Origin: Candidatus Bipolaricaulia bacterium
GTDB lineage: Bacteria > Bipolaricaulota > Bipolaricaulia > JBHIAT01
NCBI GenBank assembly: GCA_046758705.1
Contig: JBHIAT010000060.1
Location: forward strand, 1-19,134
Direction of reading: 5' to 3'
Length of the DNA: 19,134 nucleotides
Below the pieces are notes generated by a model, which had not been told where the DNA came from, ran no database searches, and saw only the letters and a program-made list of their open reading frames with translations. The translations under genes were made by a program, and so were the position numbers. Positions 1,211 to 19,133 of the stretch are shown piece after piece; positions within the stretch are counted from its first letter, which is position 1; each line of letters begins with the position of its first letter.

Positions 1211-2272
1211 ATGTCCACAGATAGAAAGTTCATCTACGGGGTAATAAACACGGAACGGGAGAAAAGATTTGATTTCACCGGGATCGGGGGCGGGGAAGTT
1301 TATAACATATGCCACCGAGATATCTCCGCGCTGGTCAGCGATGCCCCCGGCCTGGCGTTCGATTCTATACCTAAAGAGGAGATCCTCCGCCACCTGGTCA
1401 TCTACCAGTATGTGGCTGAGCAGGTGATGAGGGATGGGGATTGCACCGTCATCCCGGTGAAGTTTGGCACGATGGCCGAGGGACAGGCGGAGGTCAAGAA
1501 AATCCTATCCAAGGGCTATCCCCGATTTAAACACTCACTTGATGAGCTGGACGGGAAGATCGAGTTCGATATCGTCGCTCTATGGAACGACATGGATTCT
1601 GTCTTCCAGGAGATCAGGGAGGAACAGGAGATCCAGGAGGTCATCGCCGGGATCACCGGGAAACCTCCCCGGGAAGCTCACCAAGACAAGGTCAAGGTGG
1701 GCGAGCTCGTCCAGGAGAAACTGGTTCAAAAGCGGAAAAAGCTTTCAGATGAAATAACAGGCTCCCTGAAACAGGCGGCTTGTGATCTCCGAGAGCATGA
1801 GCTTCTGGAAGGTGAAGCGATGATCATGAACGTCTCTTTCCTGGTCGATAAGAAAGATGTGGAGGGATTCAACCGGAAGCTCTACGAGCTGGACGAGCGA
1901 TATGAGGGACAGTTGACCTTCAGGCAGGTGGGGCCCCTTCCCCCGTATAGCTTTAATATGATGGAGGTCCAAGAGATCGGTTTCGAGCAATTCAATCATG
2001 CCTGCCGGCGTTTGGAGTTAAGGGGAGACCAGGTCACCGCTCTCGAGATCGAGCAGGCCTATCAAAGGTTATCCCGAAAGTACCATCCCGATCAGCGGGG
2101 TGGCGACCCGGAGAGGTTCGAACAGATCACCGAGGCCTACCAGCTGCTGATCGATTATTGTGAGAACACCCCGAAGGAAGACGGGAGATACCCCTTTATC
2201 GAGGAAAATCGCAAAGATTTCATCATCAAGGTGGTAGCACCTCAGCCGCTCAAAAGCGTTGTCGCGGCTTAA
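1211..2272 (+). CDS. GvpL/GvpF-family gas vesicle protein with C-terminal DnaJ (J) domain
   Basis: N-terminal FIYGVI, TVIPVKFGT and GPLPPYSF GvpL/F motifs, followed by EIEQAYQRLSRKYHPDQRGGDPERFEQITEAYQLL (J-domain, HPD at 2084-2092). Confidence 0.9.
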   Translation: MSTDRKFIYGVINTEREKRFDFTGIGGGEVYNICHRDISALVSDAPGLAFDSIPKEEILRHLVIYQYVAEQVMRDGDCTVIPVKFGTMAEGQAEVKKILSKGYPRFKHSLDELDGKIEFDIVALWNDMDSVFQEIREEQEIQEVIAGITGKPPREAHQDKVKVGELVQEKLVQKRKKLSDEITGSLKQAACDLREHELLEGEAMIMNVSFLVDKKDVEGFNRKLYELDERYEGQLTFRQVGPLPPYSFNMMEVQEIGFEQFNHACRRLELRGDQVTALEIEQAYQRLSRKYHPDQRGGDPERFEQITEAYQLLIDYCENTPKEDGRYPFIEENRKDFIIKVVAPQPLKSVVAA

Positions 2273-2293: not shown

Positions 2294-3052
2294 ATGGACA
2301 AAGGAAAGTACATTTACTGCATCATAGGAACCGATAAGGAGAAAGAATTTGACGTCGAAGCGATCGGAGATCCGGCTCATCGGGTCTATACGGTCGGTTA
2401 CCGAGATATCGCGGCCGTCGTCTCCGATTCACCCGTGGAGGAATATGAGATTACCCGAGAGAACACCCTGGCGCACCAACGGGTCATGGAGGGGGTAATG
2501 AGGGAACATACCGTCCTGCCGGTGAGGTTCAACACGATCGCCGAGAGCAACCAGAAAAACGGTCCCGAAGCGCGGATTAACCAGGAGGTCCTGAAGCGGA
2601 GATCTAAGGAGTTCAAGGATCTGCTCGCAGAATTAAATGGGAAAGAGGCGCTCGGCGTAAAGGCGTTATGGACCGATATGGACCTGGTCTACGCCGAGAT
2701 CGCCACGAACAACAGGACGATCAGGAGATTGCGGGGGAAGCGGGTAAGCCGCGACACGGGGATTGAGATCGGCCATCAGGTCAGGGCCGCATTGGAGGAG
2801 AAAAAAGAGAGGGAGGAGCGGGCGATACTGAACGTTCTCAAGGAAGTTTCGCATGATTTCTGTATCAATGAGGGATATGGTGACAGGATGGTGACCAATG
2901 CCTCCTTCCTGGTGGAGACGGACCGCAGGGAGGCGTTCGATGATCGGCTGGATCAACTGATGACCAAGCGTGATGGGAGGATGGTGTTCAAGTATGTGGG
3001 CCCCATGCCGCCCAGCGATTTTGTGGAGATTGTGGTGAACTGGGAGGCGTGA
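2294..3052 (+). CDS. gvpF: gas vesicle protein GvpF (GvpL/GvpF family)
   Basis: GKYIYCII, AHQRVMEGVM, TVLPVRFNTI and YVGPMPPSDFV motifs. Directly upstream of gvpG, as in known gvpFG pairs. Confidence 0.88.
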   Translation: MDKGKYIYCIIGTDKEKEFDVEAIGDPAHRVYTVGYRDIAAVVSDSPVEEYEITRENTLAHQRVMEGVMREHTVLPVRFNTIAESNQKNGPEARINQEVLKRRSKEFKDLLAELNGKEALGVKALWTDMDLVYAEIATNNRTIRRLRGKRVSRDTGIEIGHQVRAALEEKKEREERAILNVLKEVSHDFCINEGYGDRMVTNASFLVETDRREAFDDRLDQLMTKRDGRMVFKYVGPMPPSDFVEIVVNWEA

Positions 3053-3058
3053 TCGACG

Positions 3059-3301
3059 ATGGCGTTCCTGGTGGATGATATCCTACTGGCTCCGGTCAAG
3101 TTCCCTGCATGGATGGCGAAAAAACTTATGGACCAGGCGGAGGAGGAGATGACCGATGAATCGAAGGTGCGAGAGTTGCTTTTAGAGCTCCAAATGAAGC
3201 TTGAGCTGGGAGATATCGGTGAAGAAGAGTATGAGAAGCAAGAGACAGAGATCATGGAATGGTTAAATTTCATCAGAGCGCGTAAGAAAGAAAACGGGTA
3301 A
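3059..3301 (+). CDS. gvpG: gas vesicle protein GvpG
   Basis: FLVDDILLAPVK...AEEEMTD...LLELQMKLELGDIGEEEYEKQE pattern of GvpG. Confidence 0.92.
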   Translation: MAFLVDDILLAPVKFPAWMAKKLMDQAEEEMTDESKVRELLLELQMKLELGDIGEEEYEKQETEIMEWLNFIRARKKENG

Positions 3302-3316
3302 GGAGGTGAGTTCAAT

Positions 3317-3595
3317 ATGGCCACACCGGCGGAGTTAGTCAGAACGGCCCGGGAACAACTGAGTGAGCTGACCGGATTGGAGCTTGCCAGTACGTTGGGT
3401 GTCACCAGAAAAGAGGAAGGTTGGCAGATATCCTTGGAGTTGGTGGAGAAGCATTCCATCCCCGAGCAGATGGATATCCTGGCAAGATACGAAGCTACGC
3501 TAGATGACGACGGCAACCTGCTGGACTTCAAGCGCAGGGGCCTCCGCAAGCGCGTCGATACCGAGTGGATTACCGAGGAGGAGCTGGCGGAATAA
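3317..3595 (+). CDS. gvpO: gas vesicle protein GvpO/GvpR
   Basis: GWQISLELVEKHSIPEQMDILARYEATLDDDGNLLDFKR matches the GvpO pattern. Strong RBS AAGGAGGT. Confidence 0.9.
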   Translation: MATPAELVRTAREQLSELTGLELASTLGVTRKEEGWQISLELVEKHSIPEQMDILARYEATLDDDGNLLDFKRRGLRKRVDTEWITEEELAE

Positions 3596-3671
3596 CCGTA
3601 AGAATGGAGATCAACGATTGATTTTTTCCTCAGTGACTCAAGAGCATGAAACGAAGGCAACCCAGGACGGG

Positions 3672-5699
3672 ATGCCGAGCTTTCTGAATAACGAGGATTT
3701 GCGACTGATCATCTTTGGTGGCAAGGGGGGCACGGGGAAGACGACCTCGGCAGCGGCCACAGCCGTCTATCTGGCCCAACGCCACCCGGCGAAGAACATC
3801 GTGGTGATCTCTACCGACCCGGCACACTCGCTGGGAGATAGTCTGAGCTGTTCGGTCAGGGGGGAAAGGACATCTATAACGAGAAATCTCTCGGCTTTGG
3901 AGTTAGATCCGGCAAAGTCCCTTGAGACGTTCAAGGCAGACCATAAACGCCGGATTGAGGAGCTCGTTCAGCGATCCGGTTTCTATGGCCAGGTGGATAT
4001 CAAGGAGTTCCTCTCTTTTTCCCTGCCGGGGATGGAAGAGATAATGATCTTTATGGAGATGGCCAAGTTGTTCAAATCCACCTGGCAGAAAAGACCTGGA
4101 GAGGATCGTTCCGTTTACCGCCCCAGGTGTGATGTGATGATACTTGACACGGCTCCCACCGGTCACACCCTTCGGCTACTCTCTCTGCCTCAGAGGATGG
4201 AGGAGTGGATTGAGGTCCTTGATGAATCGCTCAACAAATACCGCACCCACCCCAGGCTGTACGCGACCAGTGAACCGAGACGGGGAGGAGATTGGGTTGA
4301 CCGGTTCGTGGAACAGCTACACAGGGACATGGAGTGGGTCGGCTCGCTGCTTACCAACGCTGAAACCACTGAATTCGTTCCGGTGATCATTCCGGAACGG
4401 ATGGCCATCGCTGAGACGGAAGACCTCCTCCTCACCTTAGAAGAACGGGGGATCGCCGTCAGGAATATCATCATCAATAGGACTCGGGAAGATCGGGAAT
4501 GTGTGTTCTGTTCATCTCAACGGGGGAAACAGAAGATGGCTATCGCGGAGATCGAGGAGAAATTTTCCAGTTATCGGCTCATCGAAGTGCCCCTCTTCCC
4601 CTACGAAATTCGTGGCGATCAACGCCTGGCCGAATATGCTGAACGGTTGGCCGGAGAGACCCATCAGGATCGGCAACTAGAACCCAGTCGACCCCAACCT
4701 TCGGCATCTTTTCCAGTGAAGCTGCCCGAGCTGCTAACCCAGGATCTGAAATTTATCCTATTTGGCGGCAAAGGTGGAGTGGGCAAAACCTCCGTATCCG
4801 CTGCCACAGCTTTGCATGTGGCGAGGTGCTATCCCCAAAAAAAGGTGCTCGTCTACTCCATCGATCCTGCTCATTCATTGGCCGACAGCTTCGACTATCC
4901 GATCGGGGACCGGATCACCCAGGTGCCGGGGATTGACAATCTCTATGCCTTGGAGACGGATGCTGAAAGATTGTTTGAGAACTTCATGGGTGAATACCGA
5001 GCCCTTATCAAGGACGCCTTCGATATCTGGACCCAGGACGATAGGACCCGACGAAGGTTGGCATTACAGTTTGATCGGAACGTGATGAGCGCATTTTCCA
5101 AATCCGTGCCTCCGGGGTTCAATGAGCTCCTCGGGTTAGAGCAAATTATGGAATTCGTGGGGAAGAACGCCTATGACCTCTATGTTCTGGATACCGCACC
5201 CACCGGACACCTGCTTGAGCTCCTACAATTTCCTCAACTGATTAGAGATTGGGTGAAATACGCTTACCGAGGACTGCTGAAGTGGCAGCTGGAACTGCCC
5301 GTGACTGAGCTTCAGGAGTTGGGCAACAGGATCTTGCGGTCAACCACAGCGGTGAGAAAGATGCGAGACGCCCTCACCGACTCTGAAACGAGTGAATTTG
5401 TGGCGGTGACCATCCCTGAAGCAATGGGGATTGCTGAAACCGATCGGCTGACCTCGGCCATTCGAAAACTTGAAATCCCCTGGAGGCATGTCATTATGAA
5501 TCAGATCGTACCGCCCATGAACTGTGGCTTCTGCGCTTCCAAACGGGATGAACAGCTCAAGTATATTCAACAGGTGAAGACTGAAGATCGATATCGCGAT
5601 TGCCTGATCACCGAGATACCGTTGTTCCCTCATGAGATTAACGGGATGGATGATCTAACCGAGCTTACCAAGCTGATGTATGGGGAGGTAGAAAGCTGA
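3672..5699 (+). CDS. tandem two-domain ArsA/Get3(TRC40)-family ATPase
   Basis: Two deviant Walker A motifs (GGKGGTGKTT, GGKGGVGKTS), STDPAHSL/SIDPAHSL, two DTAPTGH, and one CxxC in each half (CVFC, CGFC). Start is 3672 (ATG) or 3618 (TTG). Confidence 0.92.
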   Translation: MPSFLNNEDLRLIIFGGKGGTGKTTSAAATAVYLAQRHPAKNIVVISTDPAHSLGDSLSCSVRGERTSITRNLSALELDPAKSLETFKADHKRRIEELVQRSGFYGQVDIKEFLSFSLPGMEEIMIFMEMAKLFKSTWQKRPGEDRSVYRPRCDVMILDTAPTGHTLRLLSLPQRMEEWIEVLDESLNKYRTHPRLYATSEPRRGGDWVDRFVEQLHRDMEWVGSLLTNAETTEFVPVIIPERMAIAETEDLLLTLEERGIAVRNIIINRTREDRECVFCSSQRGKQKMAIAEIEEKFSSYRLIEVPLFPYEIRGDQRLAEYAERLAGETHQDRQLEPSRPQPSASFPVKLPELLTQDLKFILFGGKGGVGKTSVSAATALHVARCYPQKKVLVYSIDPAHSLADSFDYPIGDRITQVPGIDNLYALETDAERLFENFMGEYRALIKDAFDIWTQDDRTRRRLALQFDRNVMSAFSKSVPPGFNELLGLEQIMEFVGKNAYDLYVLDTAPTGHLLELLQFPQLIRDWVKYAYRGLLKWQLELPVTELQELGNRILRSTTAVRKMRDALTDSETSEFVAVTIPEAMGIAETDRLTSAIRKLEIPWRHVIMNQIVPPMNCGFCASKRDEQLKYIQQVKTEDRYRDCLITEIPLFPHEINGMDDLTELTKLMYGEVES

Positions 5700-5778
5700 T
5701 GATCACAAAAGCGGGGAAACGGATCGCCCGTCCTGCGAGTGGAATGCCTCCCCCCGTCAGTGAGGAGCGTGATGAGCG

Positions 5779-6126
5779 ATGACCATAGAGGCCACGAAGG
5801 AGCGGACCGACGGGGGTCTGGCAGAGATGATTGACCGGATCTTGGACAAAGGGTTGGTGATCAACGCGGATATCACCGTATCGGTCGCCGGCGTAGAGCT
5901 TTTGGGGATCAAGATCAACGCCGCATTGGCTTCATTTGAAACCGCGGCCAAGTACGGCCTGGAGTTCCCCTCGGGGACCAACACCGAGACCGCAGCCTGG
6001 AAGGAAGCGATGCAACCCAAGGAAGCCTGCCCAAACTGCGACAAAAACGTAGCCGAAGCAGCGCTCCTGGATGGCGGCTGTCCGTGGTGCGGGTGGACCA
6101 GTGCCTGGGCCAAGATAAAAACATAG
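5779..6126 (+). CDS. gvpJ: gas vesicle protein GvpJ (GvpA/J/M family) with C-terminal CxxC...CxxC tail
   Basis: GLAEMIDRILDKGLVINADITVSVAGVELLGI...ASFETAAKYGLEFPSGT closely resembles archaeal-type GvpJ. Precedes gvpK. Confidence 0.85.
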   Translation: MTIEATKERTDGGLAEMIDRILDKGLVINADITVSVAGVELLGIKINAALASFETAAKYGLEFPSGTNTETAAWKEAMQPKEACPNCDKNVAEAALLDGGCPWCGWTSAWAKIKT

Positions 6127-6142
6127 AGGATAAGGAGGAAGG

Positions 6143-6499
6143 GTGCCCATCAACATCGATGAGCGCAGTTTAAAACACGGCGTTTTGGGGCTGGTCATCG
6201 CCCTGGTAGAGATCATCCAGGATGCGCTTAACCACCAGGCGCTCAGACGGATGGAAAGCGGCAGCCTCACCGAAGCGGAGGTCGAAAGATTGGGAAAGGC
6301 ACTCATGGAGCTGGATACCGCGATTGAGGAACTGAAACAGGAGCAGGGAATCGTCGAAGCGGTGCAATCGGTACGGGATGGCCTGGATCATCTTGCCTAT
6401 GACACCATCAATCAGTTAGTGAACCCAGAGAAGTGGGCAGAGATCAGAAGGAAGGCAGAAGAGCGTCAACATGCAAGAACAAGCAGAGGACAGTTCTAA
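6143..6499 (+). CDS. gvpK: gas vesicle protein GvpK
   Basis: LVIALVEII...QALRRMESGSLTEAEVERLGKAL GvpK signature. GTG start after AAGGAGG. Confidence 0.93.
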   Translation: MPINIDERSLKHGVLGLVIALVEIIQDALNHQALRRMESGSLTEAEVERLGKALMELDTAIEELKQEQGIVEAVQSVRDGLDHLAYDTINQLVNPEKWAEIRRKAEERQHARTSRGQF

Positions 6500-7256
6500 C
6501 GCCCAATATCTTTACTGTATCGCCAACAGCCCGGCACAGGTTACCCTGGGTGAGATAGGCATAGAGGGGAACGAGGTCTATACGATCGCCTATAAGGATC
6601 TGTGTGTGGTCGTTCATGATTGTGCCCCGCAGCCCTATGAATCCGAGGACGAGCAGATGGTTAAAGAGTGGGTGGTCGCTCATGTGAACGTTGTGGAGGC
6701 TGCTTGGGAGCGGTTCGGCACCGTGATCCCGTTCCGCTTCGATACCATCATCGATGGCGCTCAGGAGAACGTAACCAGCTGGCTAAAGGAGACATATGAA
6801 GATTTGAAGCACAGGATAATCCAATTCGAAGGGTTGGCAGAATACGGAGTTCAGATCTTTTGGGATCCTGAGATTATCATCGAAAGGGTGTCTGGTACAG
6901 ATACGACCATCAAGGAGTTGAACCAGAAGATAGCCGCCATGTCCGAGGGGACCGCCTATCTGCACCAGCAGAAGCTGGTGAAGCTGTTAAAGGAGAAGGT
7001 GGAGGAGGAAGCGGATCGATGTTTCAGGGACTGCTACAACCGGATTAGGGTGTGCATTGAGGACATACAGGTGGGGAGGGTGAAACAGGAGAAGGAGAGG
7101 GAGCAGGAACAGGGCAAACAGATGCTGGCCAATCTGGCCTGTCTGGCCGAAAAGCCCCCGCGGAGGTTGGGGGAGGAATTGGGGAAGATCGCGCGGATGG
7201 ACGGATTTTCCGTCCGGTTCACCGGACCCTGGCCGCCGTATAGTTTTGCCGATTAA
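6471..7256 (+). CDS. gvpL: gas vesicle protein GvpL (GvpL/GvpF family)
   Basis: YLYCIA, TVIPFRFDTII, EYGVQIFWD and FTGPWPPYSF motifs. Positioned between gvpK and gvpM. Confidence 0.87.
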   Translation: MQEQAEDSSNAQYLYCIANSPAQVTLGEIGIEGNEVYTIAYKDLCVVVHDCAPQPYESEDEQMVKEWVVAHVNVVEAAWERFGTVIPFRFDTIIDGAQENVTSWLKETYEDLKHRIIQFEGLAEYGVQIFWDPEIIIERVSGTDTTIKELNQKIAAMSEGTAYLHQQKLVKLLKEKVEEEADRCFRDCYNRIRVCIEDIQVGRVKQEKEREQEQGKQMLANLACLAEKPPRRLGEELGKIARMDGFSVRFTGPWPPYSFAD

Positions 7257-7260
7257 AAAA

Positions 7261-7524
7261 ATGGATCGATTGAAGATGGAACCGACCCGAGATAAACAGG
7301 TCACGATAGCCGACCTGCTCGATAGGGTTTTGGATAACGGGGTCGTGATCAGAGCCGATATCGTCATCTCCGTCGCCGGCATTCCCCTGATCGGAGTCAA
7401 TCTACAGGCCGCGCTGGCCGGGATGGAGACGATGCTGGAATGGGGGATGTTAGAAAGCTTTGATAAAGAGCTCCGAGAGCGGGAAGGTCAGCATCGGGAC
7501 GAGCTGTCCCTGGCCCAGGTATGA
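7261..7524 (+). CDS. gvpM: gas vesicle protein GvpM-like (GvpA/J/M family)
   Basis: MEPTRD...DLLDRVLDNGVVIRADIVISVAGIPLIGVNLQAALAGMETMLEWG resembles archaeal GvpM. Alternative start at ATG 7276. Confidence 0.8.
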   Translation: MDRLKMEPTRDKQVTIADLLDRVLDNGVVIRADIVISVAGIPLIGVNLQAALAGMETMLEWGMLESFDKELREREGQHRDELSLAQV

Positions 7525-7553
7525 ACCGATGGTAGTAGAAGGAGGGTTGGGAG

Positions 7554-9281
7554 ATGTCTAAAGCAGTGGGCATTGATCTGGGGACCACCAACTCGGTAGC
7601 GGCTGTCATAGAGAACGGTCGGCCCATCGTGATACCCAACGCGGAAGGTGGGCGACTCACTCCATCGGTGGTTGCGTTTCAACGGGACGGAGCCCGATTG
7701 GCCGGACAGTTAGCAAAAAGACAGGCCGCAGCGAACCCAGAGCATACCATCTTTTCGATCAAGCGGCAGATGGGGGACGGCTGGAAGATGAGAGTTGATG
7801 GGGTCGCCTATACCCCCGAGAAGATCTCCAGTCTGATCTTGGGAAAGATCAAAGCCGATGTAGAAAGCTATTTGGGCGAGCGGGTGGAGCAGGCCGTGAT
7901 TACCGTGCCGGCTTACTTCAACGACCACCAGCGTCGGGCGACCCAAGCTGCGGCCAGAATCGCCGGGCTGGAGGTGCTCAGAATCATCAACGAGCCCACC
8001 GCCGCCGCGTTGTCGTATGGATTGCATCGGCAAAGGGTTCATAAGATCCTGGTTTGGGACCTGGGGGGCGGCACGTTTGACGTCTCCATCTTAGCATTGA
8101 GTGAAGGGTTTTTTAGAGTGGTGGCCGTCAATGGGAATACCCGACTGGGGGGAGATGACTGGGATCAGCGGATCACGCAGTATTTGGTCGATAAGCTCGC
8201 CCATGAGCACGGGATTGAGCTGCGGGAGGACAAGATAGCTTATCAAAGGCTGAAACAGGCCGCAGAGACGGCCAAGATTGAGCTATCCAGCCAATCGGTC
8301 ACCGATGTGAGGTTGCCGTTTATCAGCGACACCGACACTCACCCCCTGAATATCACCTTAACCCGGGAGCAAGTTGAGGCGTTAACGGAAGACCTCCTGG
8401 AGAAGATGGTCGCTCCCACCCGACAAGCGCTTGCCGATGCCGAACTGAAATCTGAAGATATCGATCGCGTCGTTTTAGTCGGCGGAGCCACCCGGATCCC
8501 CGCCGTCCAAGCGTTGGCCAAAGAACTTTTGGGACAAGAACCCTATAAGGAGATTGACCCCGATCAGGTCGTAGCCGTAGGCGCAGCGATTCAGGCGGGT
8601 ATTCTGACCGGCGAAGTCAAAGATGTGATCCTGGTCGATGTGACCCCATTATCTTTGGGCATTGAGACCCGAGGTGGAATCTTCGCGAAAATCATCGGCA
8701 GGAATACGACCATTCCCGTCTCCCGAGGACAGATATTTACCAACGCCTACGATGATCAGGCTGAAATAGATGTCCATGTCCTGCAAGGGGAGAGGGAGTT
8801 AGCTGAGTATAATATGAGTTTAGGCAAATTTCAGCTGGATATTCCTCCATTAGAACGGGGAAAAGCAAGAATTGAGGTGAACTTTAACATCGACGTCGAC
8901 GGCATTATCCATGTGACCGCCCGTGATCTCCATACCGATCATGAGAAAAGGGTCATCATCGATTCTCCTTCTGGATTATCAGAGGAGGAGATCGAGGCGA
9001 TGGTGAAGGAAGCCCGCCAACACGCCCAACAGGATGAACATAAGCGAAGGGAGATAGAGGTAAAGATTCGTGCGGATAACGCAATCCATGTAGCAGAAGG
9101 GATAATCGAGGAGGTAACGGACGAATCCCAACGGAAGGAACTGCAACAGGCCATATTAAGAACAAAAGATGCCCTTTCCGGTGAAGATAGCGACATGATC
9201 AACCTAAGAACTGAGGAGTTGGGTGAGCTCATTGAGAATTGGGAACGCCAATGCCAACAGACCTCCCTTACTAGAGGATGA
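7554..9281 (+). CDS. dnaK: Hsp70/DnaK-family chaperone, gas-vesicle-cluster paralog
   Basis: GIDLGTTNS, AVITVPAYFND, DLGGGTFDVS, VVLVGGATRIP and linker DVILVDVTPLSLGIET. 575 aa with a short C-terminus. No grpE, dnaJ or hrcA adjacent. Confidence 0.93.
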   Translation: MSKAVGIDLGTTNSVAAVIENGRPIVIPNAEGGRLTPSVVAFQRDGARLAGQLAKRQAAANPEHTIFSIKRQMGDGWKMRVDGVAYTPEKISSLILGKIKADVESYLGERVEQAVITVPAYFNDHQRRATQAAARIAGLEVLRIINEPTAAALSYGLHRQRVHKILVWDLGGGTFDVSILALSEGFFRVVAVNGNTRLGGDDWDQRITQYLVDKLAHEHGIELREDKIAYQRLKQAAETAKIELSSQSVTDVRLPFISDTDTHPLNITLTREQVEALTEDLLEKMVAPTRQALADAELKSEDIDRVVLVGGATRIPAVQALAKELLGQEPYKEIDPDQVVAVGAAIQAGILTGEVKDVILVDVTPLSLGIETRGGIFAKIIGRNTTIPVSRGQIFTNAYDDQAEIDVHVLQGERELAEYNMSLGKFQLDIPPLERGKARIEVNFNIDVDGIIHVTARDLHTDHEKRVIIDSPSGLSEEEIEAMVKEARQHAQQDEHKRREIEVKIRADNAIHVAEGIIEEVTDESQRKELQQAILRTKDALSGEDSDMINLRTEELGELIENWERQCQQTSLTRG

Positions 9282-10167
9282 ACCGGTCATCTTATCCGGT
9301 CAGGGGGTCTGCAAAGATAATGGTTCACGATCGGGCTGGAGACCTGGGCATCTTTATCTGACCCAGAAAAGATTGCTCCTGTTTCAACCGGCAGGGATGA
9401 TATTTGAAACCCTGCTAGATAACGTTACGGATATCTCAGTGGGGAAAAAACAGTTTGTCCTGACGAAGAAGCCAGCCATTTGCATATCCTATAAGCATCC
9501 GAGAAGTGAAACAAGCTCAAAGATCTGGATCATCGCAGACGACCTTAACACCTGGAAGAGAGAGATATATGGAAGAACGCTGTTAACGATTGATGAGCAG
9601 GCGGTCGATCGAATCGTTCAACAGTTGGATCAAGACAGCCAGGAGATACTCTGGTATTGTTGGAGAAACGGACACGCGACGATCGATGAATTATCCGAAG
9701 TGATGAAAGCCCTGGCTCACATGGATCTCCTCCATAAGATCAAGAAGGTGATCAACCCGACCGCGGAGCGGACGATCGGAAGTCCGATATTGACATTTGA
9801 ACGATCCAGAGTTGATCCGGTGACCGGGGAGAAGATCTTATTCGGTTGGTGGCTTATGGGCAAAAAGTGTCTGGAGGGAAGGGAGCCGATCCTGGATATC
9901 TTCGACGAGGAAGATCATCTCACGGTGATCCTGGAGCTACTGGATGTCCAGGTCCAGGAAGAGGAGATCCTGGTGAGAGCGGGAGATGATGAGCTGACCG
10001 TATCGGCTAGAGGGTACCATAAGAAATTTTCTCTGCCGGCAGAGGTCCACAGTGAGGTATTCACCCAAAGGTGCAACAATAACATGTTACAGATCAAACT
10101 GAACAAGACAAATGGGTCGGGACGGGACAGCGTTCACCGTTTCAGCGGACGTAGATCCCTTCCCTGA
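9223..10167 (+). CDS. multi-domain protein: GRAM/PH-like N-terminus, wHTH-like middle, Hsp20/alpha-crystallin C-terminus
   Basis: WRPGHLYLTQKRLLLF (GRAM/PH-like), SQEILWYCWRNGHATIDELSEVM (HTH-like) and EPILDIFDEEDHLTVILEL...FSLP...NNNMLQIKLNK (ACD). Start is uncertain and overlaps the dnaK 3' end. Confidence 0.72.
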   Translation: MSSLRIGNANANRPPLLEDEPVILSGQGVCKDNGSRSGWRPGHLYLTQKRLLLFQPAGMIFETLLDNVTDISVGKKQFVLTKKPAICISYKHPRSETSSKIWIIADDLNTWKREIYGRTLLTIDEQAVDRIVQQLDQDSQEILWYCWRNGHATIDELSEVMKALAHMDLLHKIKKVINPTAERTIGSPILTFERSRVDPVTGEKILFGWWLMGKKCLEGREPILDIFDEEDHLTVILELLDVQVQEEEILVRAGDDELTVSARGYHKKFSLPAEVHSEVFTQRCNNNMLQIKLNKTNGSGRDSVHRFSGRRSLP

Positions 10168-10256
10168 GTCACGAAGTGGATGTTCTGGGTGAACGCCTGT
10201 CCTTCATCCAGACAGGGATGGAGGCTAAACTTTTGAGGCTGGCAAAGGAAGAGTAA
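10114..10256 (+). repeat. ~130-bp repeated element, copy 1 (upstream of an Hsp20/GvpH-like gene)
   Basis: 10125-10256 aligns with 15301-15433 with 19 substitutions and one 1-nt indel. Confidence 0.9.
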
Positions 10257-10259
10257 GCA

Positions 10260-10796
10260 ATGGGAGGTGAAGAGATGACCGGTAAACGGGAAGGAGAAGA
10301 GAAGAAAGCACCTGAGTTCGATATCGGCATTGACCTGGGGGGGCTGTTCGGGGGAATCTTCAAAGGGATCAATGATCTGGCCGACTTGGCCGCAGAGCTG
10401 GCCGAAAAAGGGGAGGTGGTCCGAGAGGGAGCGTTCGACTTCGAGGATCGTAAAGGGAGGTTCGGCTTCGCCATGAAGACCGGGGTCGCGGACGACACGG
10501 AATTTAGAGTCCGCACATCCGAAAGGAAAAAAACCGGTAAGCGCGAGGAGATCCGCGAACCCCTCATCGACATGTTTGAGGAGGAGGACGAGACGGTGAT
10601 CTACGTCGAACTCCCCGGGGTCGAGCAGCAGGATATCAAGACCGAACTGAAACAAGGTCGCTTGCACATAGAAGCTGAGCACAGAGGGATTAAATACAAA
10701 AAGGAGATAGAGCTGTCTGAGCGTGCCAAAGGCGAGCCAAGCTACGAATACAAGAACGGCATCTTGAAGGTCCGGTTCGCTCAGTCAGAGAGATGA
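10260..10796 (+). CDS. Hsp20/alpha-crystallin family protein, GvpH-like
   Basis: LGGLFGGIF N-terminus and REPLIDMFEEEDETVIYVELPGVE...YKNGILKVRF alpha-crystallin domain. Confidence 0.85.
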   Translation: MGGEEMTGKREGEEKKAPEFDIGIDLGGLFGGIFKGINDLADLAAELAEKGEVVREGAFDFEDRKGRFGFAMKTGVADDTEFRVRTSERKKTGKREEIREPLIDMFEEEDETVIYVELPGVEQQDIKTELKQGRLHIEAEHRGIKYKKEIELSERAKGEPSYEYKNGILKVRFAQSER

Positions 10797-11371: not shown

Positions 11372-11487
11372 AGGTTATTTTACCCAGGATTCATCGTCAA
11401 GGGGTATGAGAAGGGAACTTTGTCCCATTGTTGCCTTGAGCTTATATCTCACCAGATTAACCATCCCCTAAGGGCATGAACCGGATT

Positions 11488-11597
11488 GGGTCGAAACAAC
11501 AGTCACCTTTTCAACGAACGTAGATCCCTTCCTGGGTTAACGCATGTCCTTCATCCCGGGAGAGATGGAGACTAAAATCCTGAGGGTGGCAATAGAG
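11488..11597 (+). repeat. ~130-bp repeated element, copy 2 (internal ~22-bp deletion)
   Basis: TCACCTTTTCAACGAACGTAGATCCCTTCC...TGTCCTTCATCC...GATGGAGACTAAAATCCTGAGGGTGGCAA matches copies 1 and 3. Confidence 0.85.
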
Positions 11598-11639
11598 ACC
11601 GAGTTGCCCAGCTACTCGGGATCCTCCTTCTTAGAGGCT

Positions 11640-11807
11640 GACCGGCTGCATCCCGATCATAACCCCGAGAATCTGGAGGCCGAGGCCCACATGGCCGCGC
11701 TGACCCGGGCCTATCGGCTCCTCACCGCCTACGCCGAAAGCCAGGCGCTGACAAACGCCGACGTGCATTGTGACTTCAGCCAGGAGGTGCCAGTCCAAGC
11801 CAAATGA
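11640..11807 (+). pseudogene. J-domain C-terminal fragment, probable remnant of a second GvpL/F-J fusion
   Basis: RLHPDHNPENLEAEAHMAALTRAYRLL = HPD loop plus helix III only. The N-terminus of ORF 11544-11807 derives from the repeat element. Confidence 0.7.
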
Positions 11808-12676
11808 TGCAGGCTATCATGTACCAGAACCAGAACGACCGCGAACACGCTTACTACGTCTACGCCGTCGCCCAATCCCAGGACAGCCGGGAGCCTGGCC
11901 CCTTGCCGGCCGAGGGCATCGTCCCGCAGGTTTCGGTCTCTACTCTGACCTACCGGGACCTGCTCGCCGTCGTTAGCCCCGTTCCCTTGGCGGAGTTCGG
12001 CCCGCTGGCTCTAGAGGATCACCTACAGGATGCGGACTGGGCCCAAGCCCGGGTACTGGCCCACCAGCAGGTCCTGGCGGCGCTCCTCGATGGCTACACC
12101 CTGGTTCCCTTCAAGTTCTGCACTCTCTACCACAGCTGGGTGCGGGTACGGGAGATGCTGGCCTGGCACTATGAGGCTCTGAACCAGGCCTTGCAGCGCC
12201 TGAAAGGAGCTACCGAGTGGGGCGTCAAGCTCTACTGCGACCGGCGGGCGCTGATGGAATGGGTGCGGAAGGACAGCGGGGTACTCCAATCGCAGCGGGA
12301 GGCGATCGCTCAGGCATCAGCGGGAGTCGGCTATTTTCTGCGCAAGAAGTTAGAGCAGGAAGCAGAGGAAGAGGTTGAGCGGGTGATGGATGTCTGCGTA
12401 AACGAGAGCCACTGGCATTTGGCCGACTGTGCCCGGGAAGCGGTCACCAATCCAGTCCAGCCTCCGACGGTGCACGGACACAAGGCCGAGATGGTCCTCA
12501 ACAGCGCCTATCTGGTGGACGAGATCGACCTGGAGGCGTTTCGGAGGACCCTGGCGATCCTGGAGAGGAGCTATGCCCCCCAGTTCCGGTACGAACTAAC
12601 GGGCCCCTGGCCCCCTTACAACTTCGCCACCCTAGAGCTAGAGGAGGTTACCGATGAGTCCAGCCCGGTGGAATGA
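11804..12676 (+). CDS. gvpL: GvpL/GvpF-family gas vesicle protein (second-cluster fragment)
   Basis: YYVYAVA, AHQQVL, LVPFKFCTLY, EWGVKLY, MVLNSAYLVD and TGPWPPYNF motifs. Confidence 0.9.
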   Translation: MMQAIMYQNQNDREHAYYVYAVAQSQDSREPGPLPAEGIVPQVSVSTLTYRDLLAVVSPVPLAEFGPLALEDHLQDADWAQARVLAHQQVLAALLDGYTLVPFKFCTLYHSWVRVREMLAWHYEALNQALQRLKGATEWGVKLYCDRRALMEWVRKDSGVLQSQREAIAQASAGVGYFLRKKLEQEAEEEVERVMDVCVNESHWHLADCAREAVTNPVQPPTVHGHKAEMVLNSAYLVDEIDLEAFRRTLAILERSYAPQFRYELTGPWPPYNFATLELEEVTDESSPVE

Positions 12677-12881
12677 GAATGGACGCGATGTCGCCCTGGT
12701 GGAGCTCCTGGACCGCGCCCTGGACAAAGGGGTGATCCTCTGGGGAGACATCATCCTGTCCGTGGCCGACGTGGACCTGATTTACGTGGGTCTGAAGGTG
12801 CTGTTGAGCTCGGTGGAGACGGCTGAGCGGATGCGGAGCGCAGTGGCTCAACCGACACTAGAGCTGGAGCGTAAACCATGA
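12654..12881 (+). CDS. GvpA/J/S-family small gas vesicle protein (GvpS-like)
   Basis: VALVELLDRALDKGVILWGDIILSVADVDLIYVGLKVLLSSVETA resembles bacterial GvpS/GvpJ. Confidence 0.85.
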   Translation: MSPARWNENGRDVALVELLDRALDKGVILWGDIILSVADVDLIYVGLKVLLSSVETAERMRSAVAQPTLELERKP

Positions 12882-13058
12882 TGTATCTATATGCCATCAC
12901 CGACCGACCCGAGGCACCCGTGCCTGCCGGGCCCAGCCTGGAGGAAGCTTCCCCCCTCAGCCTCTCCTACCGGGGCATCGCTGCCGTGGTCAGTCCCCTC
13001 ATCATGGCCGAAGTGCCGCTGACGGCGGTTAACCTGTGGCGTCATGAGGCGGTTGTGA
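12878..13058 (+). pseudogene. truncated GvpL/GvpF-family gene (N-terminal ~60 codons)
   Basis: MYLYAITD...GIAAVVSP...NLWRHEAVV is a GvpL/F N-terminus. Homology stops abruptly and the ORF runs on into AT-richer sequence to 13237. Confidence 0.8.
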
Positions 13059-17702: not shown

Positions 17703-19133
17703 TCAGATACTCGATCCTTTGTGCCACAGCACCTCTTCCAGCGAGGTGATGCCACTGATGACCTTATGCAAACCATCTTCGATGAGGGTGGTCATCCCAC
17801 TGTTGATCGCTTCCCGAGCGATCTCCTCATCAGAAGCCCCCTGCACGATCATATCCCGGGTCCATTCGTCGATGACGAACAGCTCGAAGATGCCGGTCCT
17901 TCCCCGGTATCCCCGGTTGCTGCACCGAGGACAGCCGACCGGACGATAGATCGTTCCGACCGGCTCGACCGCCCCGCGAAGGTGCGCTTCGAGGATCTTC
18001 CGTTCCCATTCCTCCGGTTGAACCGGCTGTTTGCAATTGCTACAGAGCTTACGGACAAGCCGCTGGGCGATCACCCCGTTCAGCGCAGCGGCCAGCAGGT
18101 AGAGCTCCACACCCATGTTGAGCAGTCGCGATACCGCCCCGAGGGCCGAATGGGTGTGAAGCGTCGAGAAGACGAGGTGGCCGGTGAGCGCGGCGCGCAT
18201 GGCCATCTGGACCGTCTGCTCGTCACGGATCTCCCCGACCATGATCACGTCTGGATCCTGCCTGAACAGGTATCGAAGTGCATGGGCGAAATCGATTTTC
18301 TTCCCCGAGTTGACTCGAGCTTGATTGACATTCTCAATCCGGTATTCCGGAGGATCCTCGATGGTGGTGATGTTGATCTTGGGGGAGCTGATCGCCTTGA
18401 GGCTGGCGGTCAGCGTGGTCGTCTTTCCGCTCCCGCTGGGTCCGGTGGCCAGGATGAGACCGGAGGGATCGTGAATCAGCTGCTGGTACTGATGGAGCGT
18501 CTCCCCTTGCAACCCGAGTTCCTCAATCGAGAAGGTGATCATGGGGTTCAGCACGCGCAAGACGATCTTCTCACCGTAGATGAACGGGAAGATCGACACG
18601 CGAAGCTCGCGCTCCTCCAGCGCGATACTGCCGTCCTGGGGAGTCTCCTTCTCAGGGATGTCGAGATCGGCCATGACCCGAACCCGGCCAACCAGTTCTT
18701 TGTGAATATCCATGGGGAATCGCGCCACTCCTTGCAGGACCCCGTCGATGCGATAACGTACCTGAAGCTGATCGGCGAGCGGTTCGATGTGGATGTCGCT
18801 GGCCTCTCGTCGCAGCGCTTCGTTGATGATCGCCTCCACGATCTGGCTGACCGGCATATCGTCGGTCACCTGGGTGAGCGGGGGAATCCTCTCCTTCCGC
18901 ACCCCGGGACGCCTGAGCCACATTCGGCCGTAAGTGGTCTCGATCTTCCGTTTGATCTCGGAGGGGGTGGAGACACGCGGCTTGATCTTCATACCCGTCT
19001 GGGACCGCAGATCATCGATGATCGTGACGTCATTGGGGTCGCCGATCGCCACCATCAGCTGGTTGCCAATCTTCTGGATCGGCATCACGATCTTGCGGCG
19101 GGCAAAATCCTTATCGACCAACGCCAGCGCTTC
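17703..19133 (-). CDS. type II/IV secretion assembly ATPase (GspE/PilB family), 5' end outside window
   Basis: ASDIHIEP, RYRIDGVL, Walker A GPSGSGKT, TIEDPPEY, RQDPDVIMVGEIRD, STLHT and tetracysteine CSNC/CPRC. The frame is open to the window edge. Confidence 0.95.
   Translation of the reverse strand, partial: EALALVDKDFARRKIVMPIQKIGNQLMVAIGDPNDVTIIDDLRSQTGMKIKPRVSTPSEIKRKIETTYGRMWLRRPGVRKERIPPLTQVTDDMPVSQIVEAIINEALRREASDIHIEPLADQLQVRYRIDGVLQGVARFPMDIHKELVGRVRVMADLDIPEKETPQDGSIALEERELRVSIFPFIYGEKIVLRVLNPMITFSIEELGLQGETLHQYQQLIHDPSGLILATGPSGSGKTTTLTASLKAISSPKINITTIEDPPEYRIENVNQARVNSGKKIDFAHALRYLFRQDPDVIMVGEIRDEQTVQMAMRAALTGHLVFSTLHTHSALGAVSRLLNMGVELYLLAAALNGVIAQRLVRKLCSNCKQPVQPEEWERKILEAHLRGAVEPVGTIYRPVGCPRCSNRGYRGRTGIFELFVIDEWTRDMIVQGASDEEIAREAINSGMTTLIEDGLHKVISGITSLEEVLWHKGSSI

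Follow-up and report, generated by a model that had tools for sequence, protein, structure and literature searches.

A gas-vesicle GvpF/L protein fused to a J-domain in a Bipolaricaulia bacterium and its link to a cluster-encoded Hsp70

A GvpF/L protein with a C-terminal J-domain

Contig JBHIAT010000060.1 of Candidatus Bipolaricaulia bacterium (assembly GCA_046758705.1) is 19,134 nucleotides (nt) long and carries a gas-vesicle (gvp) gene cluster. This stretch, hereafter the window, spans the entire contig, which belongs to a 3.7-Mb bin that is 93.9% complete, and all gvp genes of the assembly are confined to it. Surrounded by gvpN, gvpF/L, gvpG, gvpO, gvpK and GvpA-family genes lies the gene for P0001, a protein that joins a complete GvpL/GvpF domain to a C-terminal J-domain. 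J-domains trigger ATP hydrolysis by Hsp70 through a histidine-proline-aspartate (HPD) motif; an Hsp70, P0004, is encoded in the same cluster. The features of the window are collected in Table 1.

Both parts of P0001 are recognized by Pfam above threshold. The GvpL_GvpF family matches with 181.4 bits, against a threshold of 23.6, and the DnaJ family (PF00226) covers amino acids (aa) 275–315 with 39.7 bits, against a cut-off of 27.8 (E = 5.3e-10). The same J match reaches 42.5 bits in a scan of the whole genome. These matches, the HPD motif read directly from the sequence and the confident model described below bear out what had been predicted from the letters of the window (the original prediction), namely an intact HPD-containing J-domain behind a complete GvpL/F domain; its span of 1991–2161 corresponds to residues 261–317, that is, to J-domain helices I–III. 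With E values up to 0.1, the other Pfam match in P0001 is a sub-threshold one to DUF4907 (16 bits against 25), and neither a glycine/phenylalanine (G/F)-rich region, nor a CxxCxGxG zinc finger, nor a DnaJ C-terminal domain is found. Because these three elements are missing, P0001 is, by its predicted architecture, a class-C (type III) J-domain protein.

Using a 39-row alignment, we built an AlphaFold2 (AF2) model of P0001 with a predicted local distance difference test score (pLDDT) of 90.7 and a predicted template-modelling score (pTM) of 0.82. Its C-terminal part contains three helices, at residues 258–267 (I), 277–291 (II) and 300–319 (III), with the HPD motif in the loop between II and III. 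In Foldseek, the GvpF part shows the two-domain GvpF fold, with matches that include 6l5d_B (E = 1.4e-15, template-modelling score of 0.86 on the target) and 4qsg (E = 6.4e-14), the score on GvpF-structure targets ranging from 0.77 to 0.86. The C-terminal part matches the J-domains of Tid1, DNAJA1, Sis1 and Thermus thermophilus DnaJ with a probability of 1.00; entries 2dn9, 2lo1, 2m6y, 4rwu and 6d6x superpose with a root-mean-square deviation of 1.3–2.5 Å over 50–59 residues. Solved J-domains, including that of Escherichia coli DnaJ in 5nro_B, are matched by sequence as well, the E. coli DnaJ structures with E about 7e-7.

A conserved tail closes the protein. All 39 homologues carry a five-residue stretch with at least three hydrophobic residues at least 28 residues after the HPD motif, and the amphipathic hydrophobic strand of the tail is often followed by basic residues, both as counted without a shuffled control. 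One could speculate that the tail docks on the GvpF sheet or serves as an Hsp70-binding segment. A complex prediction for the GvpF domain (aa 1–257) and the GvpA/J-like protein encoded at 5779–6126, run without controls, gave a score of 0.02 and a mark of 0.32, and is neutral on binding.

Table 1. Features of the window, with coordinates, strand and supporting evidence.
Feature	Position	Strand	Evidence
gvpN-like AAA+ ATPase, cut by the contig start	3..941	+	AAA_5 E 4.7e-21
gvpF/L-J fusion gene (P0001, 353 aa)	1211..2272	+	open frame, Pfam GvpL_GvpF and DnaJ
GvpL/GvpF domain of P0001 (aa 7–248)	1229..1954	+	PF06386 E 4e-53, Foldseek to GvpF structures
J-domain helices I–III of P0001 (aa 258–319)	1982..2167	+	AF2 helices, PF00226, solved J-domains
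HPD codons (H292, P293, D294)	2084..2092	+	direct sequence reading
Conserved C-terminal tail of P0001 with amphipathic hydrophobic strand FIIKVV (aa 320–353)	2168..2269	+	
Second GvpF/L gene, directly 3' of the fusion gene	2294..3052	+	PF06386 E 6e-57
gvpG, gvpO, tandem ArsA-type ATPase, GvpA/J-like gene with zinc ribbon, gvpK, third gvpF/L, GvpA-like gene	3059..7524	+	Pfam
Cluster-encoded Hsp70 (P0004, 575 aa)	7554..9281	+	PF00012 677.8 bits
Small-heat-shock-protein-like (sHsp-like) protein, 314 aa, behind Hsp70	9223..10167	+	weak HSP20/ArsA_HSP20 C-terminus (Pfam)
Direct repeat, copy 1 (3' end of sHsp-like gene and spacer)	10114..10245	+	~80% identical to copy 2
Small heat-shock protein (Hsp20)	10260..10796	+	PF00011 24.4 bits, cut-off 20.8
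Direct repeat, copy 2 (source of the P0002 start codon)	11483..11592	+	
Chloroflexi-type gvp module truncated at both ends	11532..13057	+	GC profile, colinearity
Chimeric open reading frame P0002 (87 aa)	11544..11807	+	DnaJ 18.9 bits, below cut-off 27.8, E 0.0017

Recurrence of the fusion and its association with Hsp70

The fusion is widespread. Both Pfam domains are present in 58 of the 66 database homologues of P0001. In the 39 homologues that were aligned, 28–55% identical to P0001, residues H292, P293 and D294 are invariant without exception, as is the GPLPP motif at the end of the GvpF domain. When one genome per GTDB species was scanned with this alignment, 456 relatives were obtained, of which the best 80 loci were kept; a single-protein query with P0001 returned none of them. 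The HPD motif lies 45–46 residues after GPLPP, in one open frame, in 79 of the best 80 loci, L070 being the sole locus without a single reading frame. These 80 loci belong to Desulfobacterota, Chloroflexota, Planctomycetota, Nitrospirota, Omnitrophota, Acidobacteriota, Actinomycetota, Aerophobetes, NC10 and others, and the recurrence of the J-GvpF architecture, which had been suspected from the window, is amply confirmed. Because the HPD motif is kept in all 39 homologues and 79 of 80 loci, the GvpF-J fusion is, judging from these sequences, an old family, and its predicted Hsp70-activating motif is under purifying selection.

We also considered sizing the family with a query made of the J-domain and tail (104 aa), and rejected this approach: the query is too short, and its 1116 matches at E up to 0.001, only two of which reach 1e-10, mix fusion-type and ordinary J-proteins. 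Public records label proteins of the P0001 type only as 'GvpL/GvpF family gas vesicle protein', and full-text literature searches found no paper joining gas vesicles with a J-domain.

The Hsp70 that the original prediction had paired with the fusion is real and full-length. P0004 carries the interdomain linker DVILVDVTP at residue 356, is 51% identical to the DnaK of its own genome and does not have the acidic C-terminal tail of housekeeping copies. That DnaK is encoded in a grpE-dnaK-dnaJ operon on another contig (C59). DnaJ and P0001 are the only two proteins of the assembly whose J-domains score over the cut-off.

To place P0004, a quick maximum-likelihood tree was computed from 34 Hsp70s, 22 from clusters and 12 housekeeping, several of them from the same genomes. 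Branch support is given by the Shimodaira–Hasegawa-like approximate likelihood-ratio test (SH-aLRT), with no bootstrap, and the housekeeping DnaKs of the Anaerolineales genomes are left out. All 12 housekeeping DnaKs fall in one group (SH-aLRT 100) together with four cluster copies from Anaerolineales, which may represent a separate recruitment. Since the other 18 of the 22 cluster Hsp70s, P0004 included, lie outside this group, most cluster Hsp70s are not recent copies of the host DnaK.

Eighteen of the best 80 loci have an Hsp70, many loci being short. Where at least 9.8 kb of sequence is available on both sides of the fusion gene (16 loci), an Hsp70 gene lies within 10 kb in nine, and two more have one on the same contig, at 11.3 kb in L019 and at 28 kb, beside another gvpF, in L007. 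L021, with a shorter upstream flank, has its Hsp70 16.8 kb downstream. Usually the cluster Hsp70 is found 5–17 kb from the fusion gene, beside gvpF3/gvpA2 and an sHsp-like gene. The two genes are direct neighbours in several lineages: Hsp70 stands immediately upstream of the fusion gene in the Anaerolineales loci L054, L064 and L076, likewise in L063 across a masked run, and immediately downstream of it in genome G473. An apparent 1002-aa Hsp70-GvpF-J triple fusion at L063 was rejected as an artefact of the masked run of N between the two genes; their adjacency holds.

The association was quantified in two phyla, each represented by 401 evenly drawn genomes, and in all 184 genomes of the window's own phylum; the genomes were scored for an Hsp70 among gvp genes on gvp contigs. 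In Desulfobacterota, a cluster Hsp70 occurs in 7 of 14 fusion genomes versus 1 of 18 genomes with a J-less GvpF. The corresponding counts are 3 of 17 versus 0 of 25 in Chloroflexota (one unpublished genome excluded), and 1 of 1 versus 0 of 13 in the window's phylum. Pooled, they amount to 11/32 against 1/56, with a Fisher test p = 3.6e-5 that is overstated, related genomes not being independent. The figure of 11/32 is a lower bound, six fusion genomes with an ambiguous or unplaced Hsp70 having been scored negative. In G836 and G711, the Hsp70 lies 16–27 kb off on the fusion contig with no gvp genes around it (on the strand opposite to the fusion in G711), while additional Hsp70 fragments of G415, G343, G786 and G676 lie at contig ends or on other contigs. 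These negatives are soft, because the bins are fragmented. As for the one J-less exception, G281, its contig begins inside gvpK and continues with gvpF, a GvpA-like gene, Hsp70, an sHsp-like gene and ArsA, in an order that resembles the window; the position at which the fusion gene would be expected thus falls outside this contig.

The link is one-sided: a cluster Hsp70 is hardly ever found where the fusion is missing, and the fusion is often found without a cluster Hsp70. The proposed check for co-occurrence thus succeeds in one direction, cluster Hsp70 being nearly confined to fusion clusters, and fails in the other, the fusion being independent of cluster Hsp70. This asymmetry suggests an order of events in which the J-fusion arose first, working with DnaK, and a private Hsp70 was recruited later.

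The surrounding cluster and a truncated second gvp module

As assigned by Pfam, the cluster reads gvpN, a small winged helix-turn-helix (wHTH) gene, gvpF-J, gvpF/L, gvpG, gvpO, a tandem ArsA-type ATPase, a GvpA/J-like gene with a zinc ribbon, gvpK, gvpF/L, a GvpA-like gene, Hsp70, an sHsp-like gene and Hsp20. The position of a gvpF/L gene directly behind the fusion gene is kept in related loci.

Several neighbours are noteworthy in their own right. The tandem ArsA/Get3-type ATPase inside the operon (3504–5699, + strand, 731 aa) matches ArsA_ATPase with E = 2e-136, and is detected by tblastn with at least 400 bits in 18 of the best 80 related loci; it is tempting to think of it as a Get3-like factor that would target a hydrophobic shell protein. 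The GvpA/J-like protein (5779–6126, + strand) ends in a zinc ribbon of the form CPxC...CPWCGW, whose four cysteines are invariant in 25 homologues from different phyla, 66–75% identical. The sHsp-like protein behind Hsp70 has a weak PH/GLUE-like N-terminus, and its Atlas neighbours are HSP20-family clusters. It recurs behind Hsp70 in the relatives L005, L017, L018, L061, L076, L080 and L101, with 166–209 bits, and may be a co-factor of the cluster Hsp70.

Related loci hold further observations. Directly upstream of the fusion gene of L005, positions 7513–9681 encode a Cdc48-type double AAA+ ATPase (CDC48_N, CDC48_2 and two AAA domains); in the window that place is taken by just an 81-aa wHTH gene, and no Cdc48-type gene occurs anywhere in it. 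In the Anaerolineales locus L063, a 129-aa open reading frame (ORF) at 4008–4397, about 1 kb downstream of the fusion gene and behind the next gvpF/L, is rich in CxxCxGxG-like repeats that, judged by eye, recall the DnaJ-type zinc-finger motif. Within the window's own phylum, six genomes of family f4 with sizes of 1.2–2.0 Mb (G072, G074, G075, G080, G083 and G085) show GvpF matches with one or two in-frame TGA codons, which could reflect adjacent genes, frameshifts or TGA recoding.

Downstream of the Hsp20 gene, the window holds part of a second gvp module. Its guanine-cytosine (GC) content is about 0.62, as against 0.49–0.57 in most other segments of the profile, the last 1.5 kb of the contig reaching 0.58–0.60. 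It comprises a gvpFJ relic, a gvpF/L gene (11804–12676), a gvpA-like gene (12654–12881) and the first ~60 codons of a gvpF from 12878. The three genes downstream of the relic have colinear counterparts in the Chloroflexi locus L075, with 65%, 70% and 51% identity, where a complete fusion gene stands in front of them; the gene order is the same in L038 and L077. Named homologues of P0003, among the matches listed, come mostly from Chloroflexota/Chloroflexi metagenome-assembled genomes (MAGs), and one from Hyphomicrobium.

Both junctions of the module are spanned by Logan contigs; these come from three runs of a single study, probably the source samples. Because they span both, the join was not made by the MAG assembler alone, and we rejected an assembly chimera as the sole origin of the module, on support that is not fully independent.

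The second HPD motif, within 11640–11790, belongs to the chimeric ORF P0002, whose stop codon overlaps the start of the module's GvpL/F gene. Its relic part consists of the end of helix II, the HPD motif, helix III and part of the tail; helix I is missing. In tblastn with all fusion homologues, only positions 11532–11786 are matched, and only by the last ~85 residues of these proteins, with no GvpF remnant upstream of P0002. Among these matches are P0044, at 41% over 85 aa, and P0065, at 74% over 42 aa. The ATG and the first ~16 codons derive from the ~130-nt direct repeat whose first copy lies at 10114–10245. The two copies, ~80% identical with a 22-nt indel, bracket the Hsp20 gene and a gene-poor stretch of ~700 nt, and the repeat marks the 5' junction of the GC-rich foreign module.

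We regard it as highly improbable that P0002 is a functional stand-alone mini J-protein serving the GvpL downstream. It does keep the HPD motif and a helix III-like stretch, it begins with an ATG, and its stop codon runs into the start of the next gene. Yet its J match stays below the cut-off, it is without helix I and its helix II stretch is acidic (SSFLEADRL); its homology covers only the C-terminal end of fusion proteins, with no GvpF part upstream; and its first codons come from a duplicated spacer, in front of a module that is cut at its other end too. Because of the sub-threshold match, the C-terminal-only homology, the start in a duplicated spacer and the truncation at both ends, the fragment is, as its sequence indicates, what remains of a foreign-type second gvp module. 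The second HPD before a gvpL gene that had been noted in the original prediction is thus present and reflects the same architecture, but appears in the 5'-truncated relic of a second, Chloroflexi-type fusion gene and not in a working copy.

ORFs at 13.2–17.7 kb have no confident Pfam family. A type II/IV secretion ATPase with an MshEN domain (T2SSE E = 1.7e-122) is encoded at 17703–19121 on the minus strand, at the far end of the contig. No RNA holder is listed for the window stretch.

A proposed role in client delivery and comparison with known systems

We propose that P0001 is a working class-C J-protein whose GvpF/L domain acts as a client-recognition module, and which would deliver its client to Hsp70. 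We give this reading a probability of roughly 0.6. Its basis is what was computed here: the domain architecture, conservation, fold, gene context and the statistical link to the cluster Hsp70. Class-C J-proteins give Hsp70 local specificity. We infer each binding and catalytic step of the model as follows. The GvpF part would hold a hydrophobic GvpA-family protein, or sit in an early assembly complex, as published GvpF-GvpA binding suggests. The conserved J-domain would then dock through its HPD motif on ATP-bound Hsp70 and trigger hydrolysis, upon which Hsp70 would clamp the neighbouring client. The partner would be P0004 here, and the housekeeping DnaK in lineages without a cluster copy. The two sHsp-like proteins encoded behind Hsp70 may be holdases that feed the same cycle. 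The net effect would be that shell-protein subunits are kept soluble and passed on for insertion.

The choice of client is guided by earlier work. [quoted passage not shown] For GvpA2 of a Bacillus cluster, GvpF serves as primary partner and is its proposed chaperone, until GvpG displaces it (PMC11445434). Because these data point to unassembled GvpA, a client-delivery J-protein fits better than auxilin-like uncoating, which we consider less likely. Of the tether originally predicted to target Hsp70 to the vesicle, we therefore retain one half: a J-domain on GvpF is a reasonable way to bring Hsp70, while auxilin-like uncoating finds no specific support.

Several observations weigh against a working J-protein of this kind. 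The DnaJ match in P0001 is partial, spanning profile positions 12–55 of 63, and its 39.7 bits are fewer than the 59.7 of L005 and the 45.1 of L075. After residue 319 the model has no helix IV, only strands at 326–328 and 335–342 with a block-mean pLDDT of 58–78. Helix II keeps the basic residues R286, R289 and K290, and has E281 where 32 of the 39 homologues carry K or R, and Q285 where 21 of the 39 do. No more than about one in three sampled fusion genomes has a cluster Hsp70 on the gvp contig, and the remaining five of the 16 well-flanked loci belong to assemblies with only one DnaK-size Hsp70 found. For both reasons, pairing with P0004 is not required by the family; and as about two thirds of the sampled fusion genomes have no Hsp70 on the gvp contig, many lineages must use the housekeeping DnaK as a partner. 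Vesicle production by the window's cluster is itself putative: the assembly yielded no canonical short gvpA, and a decayed gvp fragment lies 2 kb downstream. The contig begins inside gvpN, and relatives place gvpA upstream of gvpN; the major shell gene probably lies on unassembled sequence. Finally, the window's genome is the only one of the 184 in its phylum with the fusion, and its bin has 4.69% contamination; the contig may have been acquired by transfer or mis-binned.

Other functions can be imagined for the fusion. The GvpF domain might bind the assembled shell or an accessory scaffold, and the J-domain recruit Hsp70 to strip or rearrange it or to clear collapsed shells, in the manner of auxilin. 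The domain logic would be the same as for client delivery, and the sHsp-like genes beside Hsp70, as well as the Cdc48-type unfoldase upstream of the fusion in L005, would suit disassembly or quality control. We nevertheless think it rather unlikely. Pfam and Foldseek searches with P0001 returned no homology to the lattice-binding parts of auxilin (PTEN-like or clathrin-binding), and we know of no enzymatic disassembly of gas vesicles. In addition, the published interactions of GvpF are with unassembled GvpA, and GvpG displaces GvpF (PMC7688916, PMC11445434).

We grant a similarly small chance to the idea that the J-domain serves the housekeeping DnaK only, P0004 having a separate job, for example with the sHsp-like proteins, and the statistical link coming from shared cluster inheritance. 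This would agree with how common the fusion is without a cluster Hsp70, and with the usual distance of 5–17 kb to an Hsp70 that sits beside gvpF3/gvpA2 and an sHsp-like gene. It accounts poorly, however, for the loci where the Hsp70 gene adjoins the fusion gene (L054, L064, L076 and G473), and leaves P0004 in an assembly with no J-protein other than DnaJ and P0001 to serve it. Much less probable still is a J-domain reduced to a structural relic without Hsp70-related activity, such as a packing or dimerisation element of a GvpF paralogue. The partial Pfam match, the missing helix IV and the less basic helix II of P0001 would fit such decay; but pseudo-J-domains typically lose the HPD motif, and here it is invariant in 39/39 homologues and 79/80 loci at 28–55% overall identity.

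If P0001 delivers clients as proposed, our data suggest that, in many uncultured bacteria, the very sticky shell proteins of gas vesicles are managed with the help of Hsp70. For the way in which the extremely hydrophobic GvpA stays soluble and inserts into the growing vesicle, a J-domain hard-wired to a GvpF paralogue offers a concrete, testable mechanism in line with the chaperone idea, and names the ATPase that would drive it; an allele with HPD changed to glutamine-proline-aspartate (QPD) would be a clean genetic probe. Hsp70 feeds the GET (guided entry of tail-anchored proteins) pathway. One may ask whether gas-vesicle assembly in many uncultured phyla is an ATP-driven Hsp70 pathway, made up of GvpF-J, a gvp-linked Hsp70, sHsp-like holdases and often an ArsA/Get3-like ATPase; we hold this broader view as tentative. 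Were it true, the parts would pass the hydrophobic shell protein from one to the next until it reaches the growing vesicle, similar to Hsp70 upstream of GET, and such clusters would require these factors in foreign hosts, where adding them might improve function. This matters in practice: engineering is turning gas-vesicle clusters into acoustic reporters, and for their heterologous expression a dedicated J/Hsp70 module is an obvious helper candidate. Such expression is reported to cause proteotoxic stress (PMC12848028), and GvpF was proposed as a GvpA chaperone from interaction data alone (PMC11445434).

Compared with known GvpF and GvpL proteins (4QSG from Microcystis, 6L5D from Anabaena and the haloarchaeal ones), the first 250 residues of P0001 make it a full member by sequence and fold, and its gene is likewise part of a gvp operon, with another gvpF/L, gvpG and gvpO behind it. 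Binding to the GvpA family is known for haloarchaeal and Bacillus GvpF (PMC7688916, PMC11445434). P0001 differs by a C-terminal extension of ~100 residues, composed of the J-domain and the conserved tail. The words 'Hsp' and 'DnaK' are absent from the text of PMC11445434, and 'chaperone' from that of PMC7688916. Genomes with J-less gvp clusters differ as well, with an Hsp70 among gvp genes in a single one of the 56 sampled.

Auxilin and GAK act with Hsc70 on clathrin coats. They share with P0001 a class-C architecture, the C-terminal position of the J-domain and the localisation of Hsp70 to one macromolecular assembly, which in the case of P0001 is putative. Unlike them, P0001 has no lattice-binding homology, and the published data favour a GvpF that binds unassembled GvpA (PMC7688916, PMC11445434). 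With canonical class-A DnaJ, such as the one encoded on contig C59, P0001 has in common the J-domain and its HPD motif. Its J-domain is placed at the C-terminus, however, without the G/F, zinc-finger and C-terminal client-binding domains, and a strand-forming tail replaces helix IV.

HscB and HscA are the dedicated J-protein/Hsp70 pair of the isc operon. Outside the J-domain we find no sequence relation, the C-terminal domain of HscB not being found in P0001 by Pfam. The J-domain is N-terminal in HscB and C-terminal in P0001, the client of P0001 would be a structural shell protein, and a dedicated Hsp70 is present in just about one in three of the fusion genomes sampled. In both systems, though, a J-domain is joined to a client-specific module, and its gene shares an operon with those of a specialised Hsp70 paralogue and of the client: P0004, on the same strand as P0001 and distinct from the DnaK of C59, takes the place of HscA. 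By analogy, the client would be presented to Hsp70 and the HPD motif would trigger hydrolysis, a likeness that is one of mechanism only.

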